Of a stretch of DNA of 64,000 nucleotides, positions 2,489-52,180 are shown piece by piece (the first letter of the stretch is position 1; every line of letters starts with the position of its first letter). The notes beneath the pieces were generated by a model. The model was not told the origin of the DNA and ran no database searches. It saw nothing but the letters and a program-made list of their open reading frames with translations. The position numbers and the translations under genes are program-made. Source of the stretch: Acidimicrobiaceae bacterium (GTDB lineage Bacteria > Actinomycetota > Acidimicrobiia > Acidimicrobiales > Salinilacustritrichaceae); NCBI GenBank assembly GCA_036675575.1, contig JAKFET010000049.1, positions 619-64,618 on the forward strand. Reading direction: 5' to 3'.

Positions 2489-2558
2489 CGTGGCCTGCTC
2501 GTGGTCCGGACGTGAGTGGGCAAATGTACGGTCGGCGCCGGTTGGTAGACAATCCAGG

Positions 2559-3362
2559 GTGCCGTCCCACCCCGCCGTCTCCGACAGCGACCACGCCCTC
2601 GCCCGGCGGCTCGCCGTCGCCGCCGGCACCCTGCTGGTCGACCTGCGCGAGCTCATGGTGGCCGACGGCGCCGACCCGACCGAGCTGAAGGACGAGGGCG
2701 ACCGACAGGCCAACGAGCTGCTCCTGGCCGACCTCGACCAGCACATGAAGCCGGGCGACGCCGTGCTCTCGGAGGAGGCGCGTGCCACCCACGACGACGG
2801 GGTCCGGCTGGACGCCTCCCGCGTCTGGATCATCGACCCGCTCGACGGCACTCGCGAGTTCTCCGAGCCAGGCCGCAGCGACTGGGCCGTGCACGTCGCC
2901 CTCTGCGTCGACGGGGCCCCGGTCTGCGGTGCAGTCGCGCTGCCGGCGCTCGGCGCCGTGCTGTCCACCGCCGACCCGGTGCTCCGGCTGCCGCCGGTGG
3001 GGACGCCGCGCATCGTCGTCAGCCGCACCCGCCCACCGGCGGAGGCCGAGACGGTGCGGGCGGCCCTCGGCGGCGTCCTCGTCGAGATGGGGTCCGCCGG
3101 CGCCAAGGCGATGGCCATCCTCCGGGGCGAGGTCGACTGCTACCCGCACTCGGGCGGCCAGTACGAGTGGGACTCGGCGGCACCGGTGGCCGTCGCGCTC
3201 CACCACGGTCTCCACGCCACCCGCCTCGACGGCTCCCCGCTCGTCTACAACCAGCCCGACCCGTACCTGCCCGACCTGCTGGTCTGCCGCGCCGAGCTGG
3301 CCGGGGCCTCGCTCGCCGCCCTGGGCGGAGGGAGCCGAGCCGACAGGCGAGGCGACCCATGA
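2559..3362 (+). CDS. cysQ: 3'(2'),5'-bisphosphate nucleotidase (PAP phosphatase), inositol monophosphatase family
   Basis: ORF 2490-3362 with motifs [19 protein letters not shown] and YEWDSAAP. Divergent from cysD. GTG 2559 is chosen as start, but 2490 or other starts are possible. The last ~30 nt are supplied by repeat copy A. Confidence 0.85.
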
Positions 3363-3415
3363 GCACGGTGCCCTTCGGCGGCGAAGCCGCCAAACCGAGT
3401 CGCGTGAGGAGGTGA
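3332..3415 (+). repeat. interspersed junction repeat, copy A (includes 18-codon sORF 3359-3415 and hairpin 3377-3391)
   Basis: GAGCCGAGCCGACAGGCGAGGCGACCCATGAGCACGGTGCCCTTCGGCGGCGAAGCCGCCAAACCGAGTCGCGTGAGGAGGTGA. Near-identical to the reverse complement of 29808-29892 and, for 66 nt, of 51809-51874. Its ATG overlaps the cysQ TGA (ATGA). Confidence 0.85.
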
Positions 3416-3439
3416 ACCATTCGCGCAGATCGTGACGCC

Positions 3440-4267
3440 GTGGAGCTCAAGGTCGTCCGCTACGAGGTCGACGGCCACGTCGCCCGCCTGACCCTCGACC
3501 GCCCCCACCGGGGCAACGCGTGGACGGGCCGGATGCACCTCGAGTACCGCTGGGCGATGACCGAGGCCGAGGCCGACCCCGAGGTCCGGGTCGTGGTGGT
3601 CACCGGGGCCGAGAACCCCGACGGTCGCACCGCGTTCTGCGTCGGCGCCGACGCCAAGGCGCTCGAGGGCCACGTCGACAAGCGCGGCTACGACGACGGC
3701 CTCCGCGGGGCGGAGCCCCCGATGCCCGATGTCGCCGAGCCCTTCGCCGCCGACTTCGCATTCCAGCTGGGCATGCGCACGCCGGTCGTGGCCGTGGTGA
3801 ACGGCGCCGCCGCCGGCGTCGGGCTGGTCATCGCCTGCTACGCCGACGTCCGCTTCGCCGTGCAGGGCGCCAAGCTCACGACGGCGGCGCCGAAGCTCGG
3901 CTTCCCCGCCGAGTACGGCCTCTCGTGGCTGCTCCCCCGCCTCGTCGGCGCCGGACGGGCCGCCGACTGGCTGCTCTCGGGCCGGGTGTTCCTCGCCGAG
4001 GAGGCGGCCGAGGTCGGGCTCTTCTCCTCCGTGCTCCCCGCCGACGAGCTGCTCCCCCACGTCGAGGCCTACGTCACCGACCTGGCCCGGCACGTCTCGC
4101 CGGCCTCGGTCGCGGCGACGAAGGCCCAGCTGTGGGGCGACCTCCTCCACGACGACCCGGCGGCATCGGTGCGCCGCTCGATGGCGCTCCTGCGCGAGAT
4201 GGCCACCGGGCCCGACTTCGTCGAGGGGTCGCGGGCCCTCTCCGAGCGGCGGCGACCGGAGTTCTGA
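3440..4267 (+). CDS. enoyl-CoA hydratase/isomerase (crotonase) family protein
   Basis: 275-aa ORF with a crotonase-fold pattern (VARLTLDRPHRGNAW, FCVGADAKAL, VVAVVNGAAAGVGL). Confidence 0.85.
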   Translation: MELKVVRYEVDGHVARLTLDRPHRGNAWTGRMHLEYRWAMTEAEADPEVRVVVVTGAENPDGRTAFCVGADAKALEGHVDKRGYDDGLRGAEPPMPDVAEPFAADFAFQLGMRTPVVAVVNGAAAGVGLVIACYADVRFAVQGAKLTTAAPKLGFPAEYGLSWLLPRLVGAGRAADWLLSGRVFLAEEAAEVGLFSSVLPADELLPHVEAYVTDLARHVSPASVAATKAQLWGDLLHDDPAASVRRSMALLREMATGPDFVEGSRALSERRRPEF

Positions 4268-28895: not shown

Positions 28896-29786
28896 ATGAC
28901 TCTCTCCTTCGACGGCAAGGTCGCGATCATCACCGGCGCCGGCGGTGGCCTCGGCCGCTCGCACGCACTCGAGCTCGCCCGCCGCGGCGCCCACGTCGTG
29001 GTGAACGACCTCGGCGGATCCGTCGACGGCGTGGGCGGGGATGACTCCGCTGCCCAGAAGGTGGTCGACGAGATCAAGGCCGCCGGCGGCGAGGCCGTCG
29101 CCAACCACGACTCGGTCGCCACCCCGGAGGGCGGCAAGGCCATCGTCCAGGCCGCACTCGACGCCTGGGGCACGGTCGACATCGTCATCAACAACGCCGG
29201 CATCCTGCGCGACACCAGCTTCGCCAAGATGACGCCCGAGCAGCTGAACCCGGTGCTCGACGTGCACCTCAAGGGCGCCTTCTACGTGACCCAGCCCGCC
29301 TTCGTGCAGATGAAGGAGCAGGGGTACGGCCGCATCGTCAACACCGCCTCCGGCGCCGGCATCTTCGGCAACTTCGGCCAGACCAACTACGGCTCGGCGA
29401 AGATGGGCCTGGTCGGCTTCACCAACGTGCTCGCCCAGGAAGGCGCGAAGTACAACATCAAGGCCAACGCCATCGCCCCCGTCGCGGCGACCCGCATGAC
29501 CGAGGGCCTGCTCGGCCCGCTGGCCGACAAGCTCGGCCCGGAGTACATCACGCCCGTGGCCGTGTACCTGGCGCACGAGTCCTGCGAGGTCACCGGCGAG
29601 ATCTACAGCTGCGGCGGCGGTCGCGTCGCCCGCATCTTCGTCGGGGTCACCCCCGGCATCGTCGACGACGAGCTGTCGGTCGAGACCATGGGCGAGCGCC
29701 TCGCCGAGATCCGGGCCGAGGACGGCTACCAGGTCCCCACGTCGATGAACGAGGAGATGGGCATCGCCATCAAGGCGATGAGCTGA
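28896..29786 (+). CDS. SDR-family oxidoreductase (MFE-2/Hsd4A-like 3-hydroxyacyl-CoA dehydrogenase), paralog of 12330-13235
   Basis: 296-aa ORF with TGAGGGLG, NNAG and YGSAK motifs. Confidence 0.85.
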   Translation: MTLSFDGKVAIITGAGGGLGRSHALELARRGAHVVVNDLGGSVDGVGGDDSAAQKVVDEIKAAGGEAVANHDSVATPEGGKAIVQAALDAWGTVDIVINNAGILRDTSFAKMTPEQLNPVLDVHLKGAFYVTQPAFVQMKEQGYGRIVNTASGAGIFGNFGQTNYGSAKMGLVGFTNVLAQEGAKYNIKANAIAPVAATRMTEGLLGPLADKLGPEYITPVAVYLAHESCEVTGEIYSCGGGRVARIFVGVTPGIVDDELSVETMGERLAEIRAEDGYQVPTSMNEEMGIAIKAMS

Positions 29787-29807
29787 CCCCGGACCGGCCA
29801 GCAGAGA

Positions 29808-29892
29808 TCACGTCCTCGCGCGACTCCGTCTGGCGGCTCCGCCGCCGTGGAGCACCGTGCCCATTGGTCGCCTCGCCTGTCGGCTCGGCTCC
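29808..29892 (-). repeat. interspersed junction repeat, copy B (18-codon sORF 29864-29808; hairpin 29832-29846)
   Basis: The reverse complement reads GGAGCCGAGCCGACAGGCGAGGCGACCAATGGGCACGGTGCTCCACGGCGGCGGAGCCGCCAGACGGAGTCGCGCGAGGACGTGA. It begins immediately after the methyltransferase TGA (29895-29893). Confidence 0.85.
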
Positions 29893-30663
29893 TCAGGCCC
29901 GTCGGGCCGTCCACACGTCGCAGCGGTAGACGAGGTCGAACGCGCCACCGTGCGCGTCGATCGCGCCTGCCACCGCGCCGTGCAGCTCGGCACGGTGCGC
30001 AGGTGAGAGCATCACGTGGTCGGAGTGCGTGCCGAGCAGGCGGATCCAGGTGTCGGACGTGTACCGGACGACCTGGCGGTGGGTCCGCACCTCCGCCCCG
30101 GCGAACCCGTCCGGCGGCGGGTCGACCGGCGGCGCCTCGCCCTTCGAGCCGGTCGCGCTCGACGCCAGAGAGGACACCATGTCGGGCGCGATGCGCTCGT
30201 ACACCCCGTCCATGTCGGCCCGGAGCTCGGGCACCTCGCTGAAGTCGGGGCGGTTCCAGAAGATGGCGGCGACCCCGTCGGGCCGGAGCAGACGCCGGAT
30301 CCGGTCCAGGCCCCGCTCGGTGTCGATCCAGTGCCAGGCCTGCCCGCACGTGAACAGGTCGAAGGCGCCGTCGGGGACGTCGCACGTCTCGAGCTCGCCG
30401 ACCACGACCTCCCACCGGACGCCCTCGAGACGGCGCCGAGCGACCGCGGCCATGTCGGGATCGGGCTCCACCGCAGTGCCGGTGAGCCCCCGGTCGGCCA
30501 GCGCCCCGGCCACCTTCCCGGTGCCCGCGCCGGCGTCGAGGACGTGCGCCTGTTCGCCGACCAGCCCGAGCAGGCTGTCGAACAGCTCGTCGGGGTAGCC
30601 GGGCCGGTGGGCGTCGTAGGCCTCGGCGACGGAGCCGAACACGAGGCGCTGCGGGCGGTCCAC
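29893..30663 (-). CDS. class I SAM-dependent methyltransferase
   Basis: ORF 29893-32055 trimmed to GTG 30663 (VAVDRPQRLVFGSVAEAYD...). SAM motif I is VLDAGAGTG. The start is moderately uncertain. Confidence 0.75.
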   Translation of the reverse strand: MDRPQRLVFGSVAEAYDAHRPGYPDELFDSLLGLVGEQAHVLDAGAGTGKVAGALADRGLTGTAVEPDPDMAAVARRRLEGVRWEVVVGELETCDVPDGAFDLFTCGQAWHWIDTERGLDRIRRLLRPDGVAAIFWNRPDFSEVPELRADMDGVYERIAPDMVSSLASSATGSKGEAPPVDPPPDGFAGAEVRTHRQVVRYTSDTWIRLLGTHSDHVMLSPAHRAELHGAVAGAIDAHGGAFDLVYRCDVWTARRA

Positions 30664-47462: not shown

Positions 47463-48641
47463 ATGACCGACGTTGTGATCATCGATGCCGTCCGGACGCC
47501 CGTGGGCCGCCGTGGCGGTGGCCTGTCCACCATGCACCCGGCCGAGCTCCTCGGCATCGCCCAGCAGGCGCTCATCGAGCGCACGGGCATCGACCCGGCC
47601 GAGGTCGGCCAGGTCGTCTCCGGCTGCGTCTCCCAGGTCGGCGAGCAGGCCTTCAACATCGGTCGCACCGCCTGGCTGGCCGCCGGCCTGCCCCAGTCGG
47701 TCGCCGCCACCACGGTCGACACCCAGTGCGGGTCGTCGCAGCAGGCCACCAACATGGCCACCGCCCTCGTGGCCGGCGGCGCCGTCGACGTCGCCATCGC
47801 CTGCGGCGTCGAGGTCATGAGCCGCATCCCCATCGGCTCCAGCGGCCGCAAGGACTTCGGCCTCGGCATCCCGATCCCCAAGACCTACTTCGGCCGCTAC
47901 GAGATGACCTCGCAGTTCGAGGGCGCCGAGCGCATCGCCGAGAAGTGGGGCATCTCCCGCGAGGACACCGACGCGTTCGGCCTCCGCTCCCAGCAGCTGG
48001 CCGCCCGGGCCTGGGCCGAGGACCGCTTCGCCACCCAGATCGTCCCGGTCACCGCCCCCGACGCCGACGAGGAGGGCAACCTGCTCGACTCGACCCACAC
48101 CGTCACCCGTGACGAGGGCCTGCGAGAGACCAGCCTCGAGAAGCTCGGCACGCTGAAGCCCGTCGCCCGCCCCGACGGCGTGCACACGGCCGGCTCGTCC
48201 TCCCAGATCTCCGACGGCGCCGCCGCCGTGCTGCTCATGACCGCCGACAAGGCCAAGGCCCTCGGCCTCACGCCGAAGGCCCGCATCGTCGACACCTGCA
48301 ACGTCGGCGTGGACCCGGTCCTGATGCTCACCGGCCCCATCGACGCCACGTCGCACCTGCTCAAGCGCACCGGCATGAAGATGTCCGACATCGACGTCAC
48401 CGAGATCAACGAGGCCTTCGCCTCCGTGGTGCTGTCGTGGGTCAAGGAGCACAACCCCGACATGGACACCGTCAACCCCAACGGCGGCGCCATCGCCCTC
48501 GGCCACCCCCTCGGCGGCACCGGTGCGGTCCTGCTGACCAAGGCCCTCCACGAGCTCGAGCGCACCGACAAGTCCACCGGGCTCGTCACCATGTGCTGCG
48601 GTGGCGGCCTCGGCACCGGCACCATCATCGAGCGCATCTAA
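47463..48641 (+). CDS. acetyl-CoA C-acyltransferase (thiolase)
   Basis: 392-aa ORF with active-site Cys region VDTQCGSSQQA. C-terminal NPNGGAIALGHPLGGTG and MCCGGGLG. Confidence 0.95.
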   Translation: MTDVVIIDAVRTPVGRRGGGLSTMHPAELLGIAQQALIERTGIDPAEVGQVVSGCVSQVGEQAFNIGRTAWLAAGLPQSVAATTVDTQCGSSQQATNMATALVAGGAVDVAIACGVEVMSRIPIGSSGRKDFGLGIPIPKTYFGRYEMTSQFEGAERIAEKWGISREDTDAFGLRSQQLAARAWAEDRFATQIVPVTAPDADEEGNLLDSTHTVTRDEGLRETSLEKLGTLKPVARPDGVHTAGSSSQISDGAAAVLLMTADKAKALGLTPKARIVDTCNVGVDPVLMLTGPIDATSHLLKRTGMKMSDIDVTEINEAFASVVLSWVKEHNPDMDTVNPNGGAIALGHPLGGTGAVLLTKALHELERTDKSTGLVTMCCGGGLGTGTIIERI

Positions 48642-50878: not shown

Positions 50879-51762
50879 CAGCGGGCGGCGGCGTCGGACG
50901 CGCCGACCGAGATACCGTCGAACAGGTCGCCGGTGGACTCGTCGCTCTCCACGTGGCTCACCGCCAGCGTGTACTCGTCCCAGGGGTGGACGGTGGACGC
51001 GACCTCGCGTGGCAGGCCGAACCAGAACGGCGACGTCGGGTCGATCTGGGTGGCGTGGGCCAGCAGGGCGTCCCAGCGCACGTCGGACCACTCGCCGGTG
51101 TGCACCCGGGTGGTGATGCGGTCGTCCTGGTCGGGCCGCTCGAACCACTTCTCGTCGAAGGGCGACTCGAGGCCCATCTCCAGGAACTTCTCGTGCATGG
51201 CCACCATGCGGCCACGGGACCACGCGGTCCAGTACACCTTGTCGACCCGGTGCGGCTCCCCCGCCTCCGGGTACCAACCCGGGTCGGCGGCCCGCTCGAC
51301 GGCGGGCATCGTGACGTCGTGGACCTGGAGGTGGTCGGGGTGGGGGTAGCCCTTCTGGTCGTCGCCGTAGGTCACCACGACCTGGGGCCGCTCCCGGCGC
51401 AGGATGGCGACCAGGCGACCGACGGCCTCGTCGTGGTCGGCGTTGGCGAAGGCCTCGGGGTGGGCGTTCGCCTCGGTGTCGGGCATGCCCGAGTCCCGGT
51501 AGCCGAGGTCGATGACCTCGTCGTAGCCGATGATCTCCGCGGCCCGCGCCAGCTCCTCCCGGCGCACGCCGGGCAGGTCGGCCTTCACCTCGTCGCGGTC
51601 CATGGCCGGGTTCAGGATGTCGCCGGCGGCGCCGTCGGTGCAGCAGACGAGCACCGTGCGGATGCCCTCGGCCCGGCACCGGGCGATCGTCGCCGCTCCC
51701 TTCGAGGACTCGTCGTCCGGGTGGGCGTGGACGGTCAGGATGCAGCGGCGGGCGGTGCTCAC
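50878..51762 (-). CDS. mca: mycothiol S-conjugate amidase (LmbE/PIG-L family)
   Basis: ORF 50878-51927 trimmed to GTG 51762 (VSTARRCILTVHAHPDDESSKGAAT...). Has AHPDDE, NPAMD, GYPHPDH and AHATQIDP, as in Mca. Alternative starts are ATG 51798 or 51927. Confidence 0.85.
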   Translation of the reverse strand: MSTARRCILTVHAHPDDESSKGAATIARCRAEGIRTVLVCCTDGAAGDILNPAMDRDEVKADLPGVRREELARAAEIIGYDEVIDLGYRDSGMPDTEANAHPEAFANADHDEAVGRLVAILRRERPQVVVTYGDDQKGYPHPDHLQVHDVTMPAVERAADPGWYPEAGEPHRVDKVYWTAWSRGRMVAMHEKFLEMGLESPFDEKWFERPDQDDRITTRVHTGEWSDVRWDALLAHATQIDPTSPFWFGLPREVASTVHPWDEYTLAVSHVESDESTGDLFDGISVGASDAAAR

Positions 51763-51808
51763 CCGGGCAACGCTAACGACCTGCACAGATGAGTACATCC
51801 CACGGGTG

Positions 51809-51874
51809 TCGGTTCGGCGGCTTCGCCGCCACAGAGACACCGTGACATGGGTCGCCTCGCCTGTCGGCTCGCTC
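51809..51874 (-). repeat. interspersed junction repeat, copy C (core 66 nt; its ATG sORF runs 51848-51759)
   Basis: The reverse complement reads GAGCGAGCCGACAGGCGAGGCGACCCATGTCACGGTGTCTCTGTGGCGGCGAAGCCGCCGAACCGA. It begins right after the TAG (51877-51875) of the upstream membrane-protein gene. Confidence 0.85.
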
Positions 51875-52180
51875 CTAGCGGTTGCTGTAGCGGTCGCTGC
51901 CGTCGTTGACGGTCCACGACCCGCCACGCCGCAACCACCAGCCCGAGGCGGCGCCGGCGACGAGGCCGACCAGGACGCCGACGGGCAGGGCGATGCGGAA
52001 GAGCCCGGTGCGCACGATGGGACGGTCGATGCCGTTCGGCTCGAACGAGGCCAGCGTGTAGAAGGGGATCGCGATCAGGAAGAAGCAGATCGCAGCGGCC
52101 CCCACCCCGATGCCGACGCCGAGCGCGATCGACCGGCCGAGCGGGCGCTCACTGGTCTTGCTGGCCGGTGGCGGTGCCAT
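51875..52180 (-). CDS. small membrane protein (101 aa)
   Basis: C-terminal part of ORF 51875-53470, from ATG 52180. Has two or three hydrophobic helices (GVGIGVGAAAICFFLIAIPF, ALPVGVLVGLVAGAASGWW). Confidence 0.55.
   Translation of the reverse strand: MAPPPASKTSERPLGRSIALGVGIGVGAAAICFFLIAIPFYTLASFEPNGIDRPIVRTGLFRIALPVGVLVGLVAGAASGWWLRRGGSWTVNDGSDRYSNR

Follow-up and report, generated by a model that had tools for sequence, protein, structure and literature searches.

Short dispersed repeats of bacteria include miniature inverted-repeat transposable elements (MITEs), such as Correia/NEMIS in Neisseria, ERIC/IRU in enterobacteria, and RUP in pneumococcus. They also include repetitive extragenic palindromic (REP) sequences, which are 20 to 40 nt long, often occur as inverted pairs in hundreds of copies, are moved by RAYT (Y1) transposases, and leave no target duplication. 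In both IS200/IS605 and REP systems, insertion takes place beside a fixed short motif that is not duplicated. Mycobacterial interspersed repetitive units (MIRUs) form tandem arrays of variable number and have small open reading frames (ORFs) that overlap flanking stop and start codons. We analyzed 64,000 nt of DNA from an Acidimicrobiaceae bacterium (assembly GCA_036675575.1, contig JAKFET010000049.1, positions 619 to 64,618; referred to here as the window), in which an original prediction had noticed three copies of a short repeat at gene 3' ends and compared them to MIRUs. With a probability of roughly 65%, we consider these repeats to be copies of a family of noncoding, nonautonomous, MITE-like mobile elements that is confined to Acidimicrobiia in the collections searched. 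The element is MITE-like, not MIRU-like, and the family has apparently not been described before.

The element has the small size, noncoding sequence, multiple copies per genome, and empty orthologous sites of a MITE. The resemblance to bacterial MITEs extends to a length of ca. 100 to 150 bp, many dispersed intergenic copies that are present or absent at orthologous sites, a short target duplication, internal hairpins, a frequent position at gene ends, and occasional co-option. It differs from them in that terminal inverted repeats are not supported, no parent insertion sequence was found, and one end is nearly invariant throughout the class while the other is only moderately conserved.

An exact 21-mer, GAGCCGACAGGCGAGGCGACC, is present in the window at positions 3337-3357 (+), 29866-29886 (-), and 51850-51870 (-). 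The chance expectation is 0.07 matches, and none of 100 shuffled sequences contained three or more. A covariance model of the window subfamily, run across the whole window with filters off, recovered the same three copies, designated A, B, and C, with scores of 125, 113, and 85 bits; the next-best match scored 18 bits. The weak matches are coding sequence, and candidates for further degenerate copies were therefore rejected; the window holds exactly three copies. They lie 22 to 26 kb apart, among housekeeping genes. The original prediction placed all three copies correctly but made them too short, because each continues for ca. 20 nt in the 3' direction through a second conserved module (..ATYCGCGCAGRTCSTNA/G).

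Copy A (3332..3435, + strand, 104 nt, GAGCC...GATCGTGA; covariance model match 3327-3438) separates an inositol-monophosphatase-family (CysQ-like) gene from a downstream enoyl-CoA hydratase (ECH) gene. The CysQ-like ORF (2490..3362, +) enters the copy by ca. 30 nt, takes its final 10 codons and its stop from it, and terminates at the TGA within CCATGA. At the other end of the copy, its 3' module (ACCATTCGCGCAGATCGTGA, 3416..3435, +; nhmmer 3'-module match 3408-3435) is separated by 4 nt from the GTG start (3440) of the ECH gene, an ORF annotated by Pfam. Copy B (29791..29892, - strand, 102 nt, GGAGCC...GGCCGGTCC; match 29785-29896) lies between convergent genes for a methyltransferase (stop TGA, 29895-29893) and a short-chain dehydrogenase/reductase (SDR; stop at 29786). 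Copy C (51773..51874, - strand, GAGC-GAGCC...GGTCGTTAG; match 51771-51879), which is 102 nt long including the 3' copy of its duplicated target, is flanked by a small membrane-protein gene, whose TAG stop is at 51877-51875, and by mca, which starts with GTG at 51762. Thus, the stop codons described as abutting copies B and C, and the read-through into copy A, were confirmed.

Comparison with related loci demonstrated that all three window copies are insertions. At each site there are relatives with an empty junction, in which the flanking genes are 0 to 26 nt apart. The copy A site is filled in the window, in Salinilacustrithrix flava (locus L012), and in locus L078, and it is empty in loci L079 (GGCGGCTGACCGGTGGAG) and L080. 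In these relatives, whose ECH is 87 to 89% identical, the two genes abut or overlap (GGCGGCTGACCGGTGGAG; CGCTGATGGAG), with the CysQ-like gene ending ...LGG-TGA just before the ECH start or overlapping it. The copy B site is filled in L076 and L077, with methyltransferases 98% and 85% identical to that of the window, and it is empty in L067 to L071, with methyltransferases 82 to 84% identical. There, the convergent stop codons are only 3 to 5 nt apart, versus 102 nt in the window; the empty site in L068 is GGGCCTGA|GGGGTCAGC (junction read GGGCCTGAGGGGTCAGC). The copy C site is empty in L072, where Mca is 96% identical, and in L073, L074, and L075. The L072 site reads ..AACCGTTAG|CGTTCACCGGGTGAGC, with the right side beginning CGTTC, and the corresponding window junctions read ..AACCGCTAG[insert..GGTCGTTAG]CGTTGCCCGGGTGAGC. 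These results, together with statistical support for a target-site duplication, favor the miniature mobile element, one of three interpretations offered in the original prediction, alongside a translational-coupling device and an attenuator or terminator. Segmental duplication, which had already been disfavored there, was rejected, as the sequences that flank the three copies show no relationship to one another.

The target-site duplication is clearest in copy C, which is the youngest. The (CG)TTAG motif of the empty site, single in that site, is found on both sides of the insert, as CGCTAG and CGTTAG. The stop codon of the upstream gene falls within the 5' copy (GCTAG, 51875..51879, -), and the 3' copy is GTTAG (51773..51777, -). 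The duplication is exact over 3 nt and extends to as much as 6 nt with one mismatch. In a broader set of 65 copies, the 3'-terminal 5-mer was found again in the copy's own 5' flank in 13, compared with 4.1 expected (p = 5e-5), and the 3'-terminal 4-mer was found again in 19, compared with 7.0 expected. The base N of the TNAG motif differs among sister copies of one genome and agrees between both ends of a single copy, indicating that the duplication is made at each insertion rather than being a fixed motif carried by the element. What the element duplicates is therefore a short stretch, a few bases, of a target resembling (C)TNAG. The target consensus is palindromic, and the data fit a 3-bp TNA duplication and a 5-bp CTNAG duplication alike. 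A C|TNA|G palindromic target with the same ambiguity between TNA and CTNAG has been reported for the NuwaII group of IS5/PIF-Harbinger (PHIS) transposons (PMC4482050). However, those transposons are eukaryotic, encode a transposase, and have inverted repeats, whereas the element described here has no transposase and no clear inverted repeats.

The palindromic target also bears on where the copies are found relative to genes. The orientation and stop-codon distances of 146 distinct copies were tabulated. Of these, 70 were co-oriented with the upstream gene and 36 were opposite to it (p = 0.0012); for the other 40, the relative orientation was unclear. Among the 70 co-oriented copies, 43 have a stop codon that starts 6 to 9 nt before the 21-mer, inside CTNAG, and another 7 are entered by the gene as far as a TGA at +23. 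Other arrangements were also found: 17 copies were antisense to both neighbors, 11 were between divergent genes, and some antisense copies have a neighboring gene whose stop codon overlaps the 3'-terminal TNAG instead. Stop-codon placement can be attributed to TAA, TAG, and TGA lying in the target motif and to the loss, by selection, of insertions within genes. The original observation that each copy shares the orientation of its upstream gene and has its 5' edge on the stop codon thus holds for the three window copies, but in the family as a whole it is reduced to a 2:1 bias.

The element is mostly 92 to 118 bp long. From 5' to 3' it consists of (G)GAGCC and the near-invariant 21-mer, ca. 6 variable nucleotides, CAC(G/A)G(Y)G, a second hairpin, a variable stretch, and a 3' module. 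The 5' module is 27 nt (GGAGCCGAGCCGACAGG..). The 3' module is moderately conserved, with a consensus of roughly GRCC-YNTCCGCGCANGTCC-TNAG that ends GTCC-TNAG. All three copies have the hairpin noted in the original prediction, a perfect 6-bp GGCGGC/GCCGCC stem closed by a loop of GAA or GGA, which is referred to here as H2. It is GGCGGC-GAA-GCCGCC in copy A (3377..3391, +) and in copy C (51816..51830, -), where an outer helix (CACGGTGTC/GACACCCGTG) extends the stem, and GGCGGC-GGA-GCCGCC in copy B (29832..29846, -). A second structure was overlooked. The conserved 5' block is itself a predicted hairpin, H1, with the consensus GCC-GA-GCC-GNNA-GGC-GA-GGC; in copy A (GCC-GA-GCC-GACA-GGC-GA-GGC, 3334..3353, +) it comprises two 3-bp stems, a tandem G.A internal loop, and a GNNA loop, and the H1 of copy B is at 29870..29889 (-).

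H1 is predicted in nearly every copy, once per element and at the 5' end only. Among 23 copies that were not chosen by the exact 21-mer, changes pile up on the two middle bases of its loop (GACA to GATA, GAGA, GTCA, or GGAA), and the stems are nearly fixed. H2 has a different pattern of conservation. Its stem sequence differs among lineages, and the pairing and a GC-GNA-GC apex (GAA, GCA, GGA, or GTA) are kept. Paired cells make up 82.5% of the H2 alignment, versus 60.1% in shuffles, and 9 of its 10 pairs have changed on both sides. The covariation score of H2 was 0.507, versus 0.162 in shuffles (0 of 500 shuffles), and slid controls scored no more than 0.138. The H2 stem is thus strongly covarying. 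A conserved long-range helix beyond H1 and H2 was considered and rejected, as it appears only in some subfamilies (copy C and Iamiaceae copies) and is no consensus feature. The RNA fold of copy C has a z score of -3.3.

The apexes of both hairpins resemble mini-hairpins that have been characterized as DNA. GCGNAGC and C-GNNA-G are mini-hairpin motifs that are far more stable as DNA than as RNA (PMC13037366). The d(GCGNAGC) and d(GCGNNAGC) mini-hairpins share with the element the GC-GNA-GC apex of H2, the C-GNNA-G apex of H1, and tandem G.A pairs in a CGAG context (PMC13037366). They differ in being physicochemical motifs of phage and plasmid priming sites and N4 promoters rather than a mobile-element family.

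Further copies exist well beyond the window. The exact 21-mer was found at 66 loci in a collection of one genome per species, all of them in Acidimicrobiia (Iamiaceae, Microthrixaceae, Ilumatobacteraceae, Acidimicrobiaceae, and S. flava), with several copies in several of the genomes, and at at least 120 metagenome loci. Searches of viral contigs and plasmids yielded no match in either collection, and a phage or plasmid origin was accordingly rejected. In neither the window nor 18 loci did any Rfam family reach the gathering score, and matches at E ≤ 10 were at chance level only; a literature search found no paper on repeats or MITEs in Acidimicrobiia. The first 4.8 kb of the window is syntenic with S. 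flava at ca. 89% identity; among the loci that contain the element, synteny with the window was seen in the S. flava locus only.

Copies differ in how they have evolved since insertion. Copy A is 97.1% identical to its ortholog in S. flava and 92.4% identical to that in L078, compared with 69 to 75% identity at codon position 3 of the flanking genes (p = 5e-12 and 3e-6, respectively). Its 73 noncoding bases alone are 95.8% and 91.8% identical to the orthologs. Thus, copy A is under purifying selection. In contrast, copy B is 94.3% identical to its ortholog in L076 (6 of 106 positions differ), versus 96.1 to 98.8% at codon position 3, which indicates that copy B is not constrained. The family is therefore best described as mobile DNA in which most copies are drifting and at least one has been co-opted. 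Copy A may supply the tail and stop codon of the upstream gene and a leader for a downstream gene that once abutted it.

The conservation of copy A raises the alternative that the repeat is a cis-acting RNA module of the host, a 3' untranslated or intercistronic stem-loop that stabilizes or terminates the upstream transcript or restores downstream translation, and that mobility merely distributes it. The 2:1 bias toward the sense orientation relative to the upstream gene, the position of the stop codon exactly at the 5' edge in most co-oriented cases, the purifying selection along the whole of copy A including its noncoding bases, and the covariation of the H2 stem all fit such a module, as does a whole-element fold that is modestly better than that of shuffled sequences (mean z of -1.15 over 45 copies). 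However, the opposite strand folds nearly as well (mean z of -0.99), with no asymmetry between strands (Wilcoxon p = 0.37), and C-G-closed GNA triloops like that of H2 are typical of stable DNA rather than RNA hairpins (PMC13037366). Furthermore, of the 106 copies that could be classified, 36 run opposite to the upstream gene; 11 copies are located between divergent genes; synonymous sites evolve no faster than copy B; and Rfam contains no matching family. The three window copies have no T-run after either hairpin, and a canonical intrinsic terminator is therefore not evident. An RNA module thus appears unlikely as an explanation of the family. Copy A alone may still have a coupling or regulatory role, given the purifying selection on it.

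A different account accepts mobility and disputes the enzyme. The element might be REP/REPIN-like or of the IS200/IS605 type (PATE-like), moved as single-stranded DNA by an HUH (Y1) transposase that reads H1 and the conserved bases 5' of it, rather than by a DDE transposase. Like REPs, the element has a short GC-rich imperfect palindrome that follows a conserved short motif (here, H1 after NNAG-GA), is extragenic, and is often located just after genes. The palindrome is invariant and 20 nt long, the ends are asymmetric without significant terminal inverted repeats, both hairpin apexes fit ultrastable single-stranded DNA mini-hairpin motifs, and the top strand favors G.A over C.T mismatches (28 versus 9) and G.T over A.C mismatches (24 versus 14). 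The orientation bias could reflect a preference for one replication strand. Nevertheless, a REP is not a composite of ca. 105 nt with two distinct hairpins, a 3' module, and a target duplication. Inverted doublets of the REPIN form are not the rule here, and tandem copies are head-to-tail. In further contrast to the PATE elements derived from IS200/IS605, the element has an H1-type hairpin at its 5' end only, not at both ends, and the N of its TNAG is variable, differing between close copies and matching across the flank and terminus of the same copy. No Y1-type gene was found among the neighbors in 200 loci, which is a weak test. It is doubtful, therefore, that an HUH enzyme moves the element. 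Even less credible is the possibility that the repeats encode a small protein, from ATG-initiated ORFs 18 to 29 codons in length, or serve as coupling units of the MIRU type that bridge the flanking genes. An ATG-initiated ORF does follow GGAG/AGG strings in all three window copies, and like MIRUs the element is actinobacterial, intergenic, ca. 50 to 100 nt in scale, often co-oriented with its flanking genes, and in contact with stop codons. However, of 179 distinct copies, only 58 have an ATG after the 21-mer, and the peptides that would result are unrelated, varying in length and sequence. The ATG of copy B is an ACG in the L076 ortholog, whose methyltransferase is 98% identical; the ortholog of copy A in S. 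flava has a 1-nt deletion that shifts the frame of the short ORF even though the nucleotides are 97% identical; and copy C differs from copies A and B by frame-shifting indels. The element is present singly in the window, with a few two-copy tandems elsewhere and no arrays of the variable-number tandem repeat type, and its orientation is merely biased. Thus, the ORFs of 18, 18, and 29 codons in the original prediction exist mechanically but are not conserved in the family, the one in copy A (3359..3415, +) was judged not to be a gene, and the coupling-unit interpretation is already contradicted.

With a MITE-like mobile element as the preferred explanation, the observations suggest a route for its spread. 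Insertion would occur in trans, through an enzyme that makes a staggered cut, and the C|TNA|G footprint would be the one left by IS5/PIF-Harbinger-type DDE transposases. The invariant H1 may be the recognition site of the mobilizing enzyme, and H1 and H2 together could act as folded DNA during mobilization or as RNA stem-loops after transcription. Most copies would then drift after insertion, as copy B appears to have done, and some would be co-opted. Copy A would be an example of the latter, giving the upstream gene its last 10 codons and stop and the downstream gene a 73-nt leader, held in place by purifying selection. A bolder interpretation, which we offer tentatively and regard as improbable, is that the family represents an unrecognized mode of moving small DNA, in which H1 and H2 DNA mini-hairpins are read by an enzyme conserved in Acidimicrobiia, without inverted repeats and with a staggered cut at C-TNA-G stop-codon motifs. 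It might also, or instead, be a ready-made intercistronic or 3'-end regulatory module that was spread by transposition and then retained, as copy A has been.

Several results weigh against a MITE-like mobile element. A clean duplication is found in only ca. 20 to 30% of copies. Neither copy A, whose 5' junction no longer has the TGA, nor copy B, with an overlap of no more than 2 nt, has one; the age of these two copies may account for this, although the model is weakened by it. The 2:1 orientation bias is not explained by a palindromic target. The terminal inverted repeats that define MITEs are not supported, because the two ends are no more alike than shuffled sequence. An inverted match of 13 of 17 positions seen by eye was not supported by a shuffle test; with the terminal TNAG set aside, the mean z against shuffles is 0.22 for inverted and 0.44 for direct similarity between the ends, and the inverted parts are GGA..TCC and the palindromic CTNAG only. 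No transposase or other recurrent gene was found beside the element, and no cognate insertion sequence with the same ends, in 200 loci of up to ca. 15 kb. No long version of the element was seen either, with every recognizable 3' module located 95 to 121 nt downstream of a 5' module. Finally, the conservation of the 21-mer across families of the class and the conservation of copy A in place exceed what would be predicted for a purely selfish, decaying element.

Other candidate relationships were rejected. Clustering of the ORFs from 66 and then 186 loci did not reveal a particular neighbor gene, only common housekeeping families (SDR, acyl-CoA dehydrogenase, ABC transporter, glycosyltransferase, and sigma factor). 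The copies are not integron attC sites: there is no cassette array, and the ends, GGAGCC and GTCCTNAG, are not R''/R' core sites (RYYYAAC / GTTRRRY). The only tRNA of the window, a tRNA-Pro (GGG) at 48434-48513 (-), is unrelated to the repeats.

Soil, water, and activated sludge are rich in Acidimicrobiia (Microthrix, Iamia, Ilumatobacter, and relatives of these), but the class has been little studied; no repeat family has apparently been described in them. The element offers a class-specific genomic marker. It also remodels gene ends: copy A replaced the stop and tail of one gene and parted two genes that abut or overlap in relatives with the empty site. Four features come together in the family: a 5' hairpin that is nearly invariant across families of the class, a second hairpin that covaries and has apexes of the DNA mini-hairpin kind, a target resembling a stop codon, and a lack of inverted repeats. 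It is therefore well suited to learning how small nonautonomous elements are recognized and co-opted. Because contigs can end inside it, the element may break assemblies. The contig end of L077 (1797), for example, falls within the 21-mer, as expected if the repeat interrupts short-read assemblies.

Several loci depart from the usual arrangement of single, complete, intergenic copies. Head-to-tail tandem pairs spaced 81 to 105 nt apart were observed in L020 (ca. 217-323), L040 (in the 5' flank of the copy), L108 (2469/2562), L138 (5582/5663), and L152 (68/173). The neighbors in a tandem have one TNAG in common, located between the 3' end of the first copy and the 5' end of the next. In L092, two similar copies are inverted with respect to each other, at 2963-2983 (+) and 3990-4010 (-), ca. 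1 kb apart. The pair was considered as a composite or autonomous element and rejected, as no transposase is enclosed between the copies.

Copies with the 5' module only, complete through CACGGYG and followed by unrelated sequence or ordinary genes, were observed in L024, L030, L032, L041, L052, and L063; the L024 copy runs into a polyphosphate kinase gene. They were rejected as ends of a longer element, as the downstream ORFs are ordinary (polyphosphate kinase, methyltransferase, and oxidase). Instead, they look like 3'-truncated remnants, which suggests that the 5' module persists preferentially. The 21-mer was also found in frame within apparently intact ORFs, each time read as EPTGEAT, in L001 (-, core at reverse-complement position 926), L015 (-, reverse-complement position 129), and L092 (3660-4322, -). 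The ORFs encode an FHA-type protein, a RibD_C-family reductase, and a membrane protein, and the L092 ORF contains an entire copy of the element. These may be insertions that are tolerated within proteins.

Minor observations were made around two of the window copies. The genes beside copy B are conserved very unequally. The SDR (28896-29786) has 98% protein identity to its counterparts in L068 and L070, and the adjacent methyltransferase only 82 to 84%. In copy A, the sequence at 3408-3435 (CCGAGTCGCGTGAGGAGGTGAACCAT) is kept in all three orthologs save one A-to-G change in S. flava. The GGAGG of copy A is 27 nt upstream of the hydratase GTG start, too distant for a normal ribosome-binding site, and a small hairpin in the copy, TCGCG-CAGAT-CGTGA, could bring it nearer to that start.

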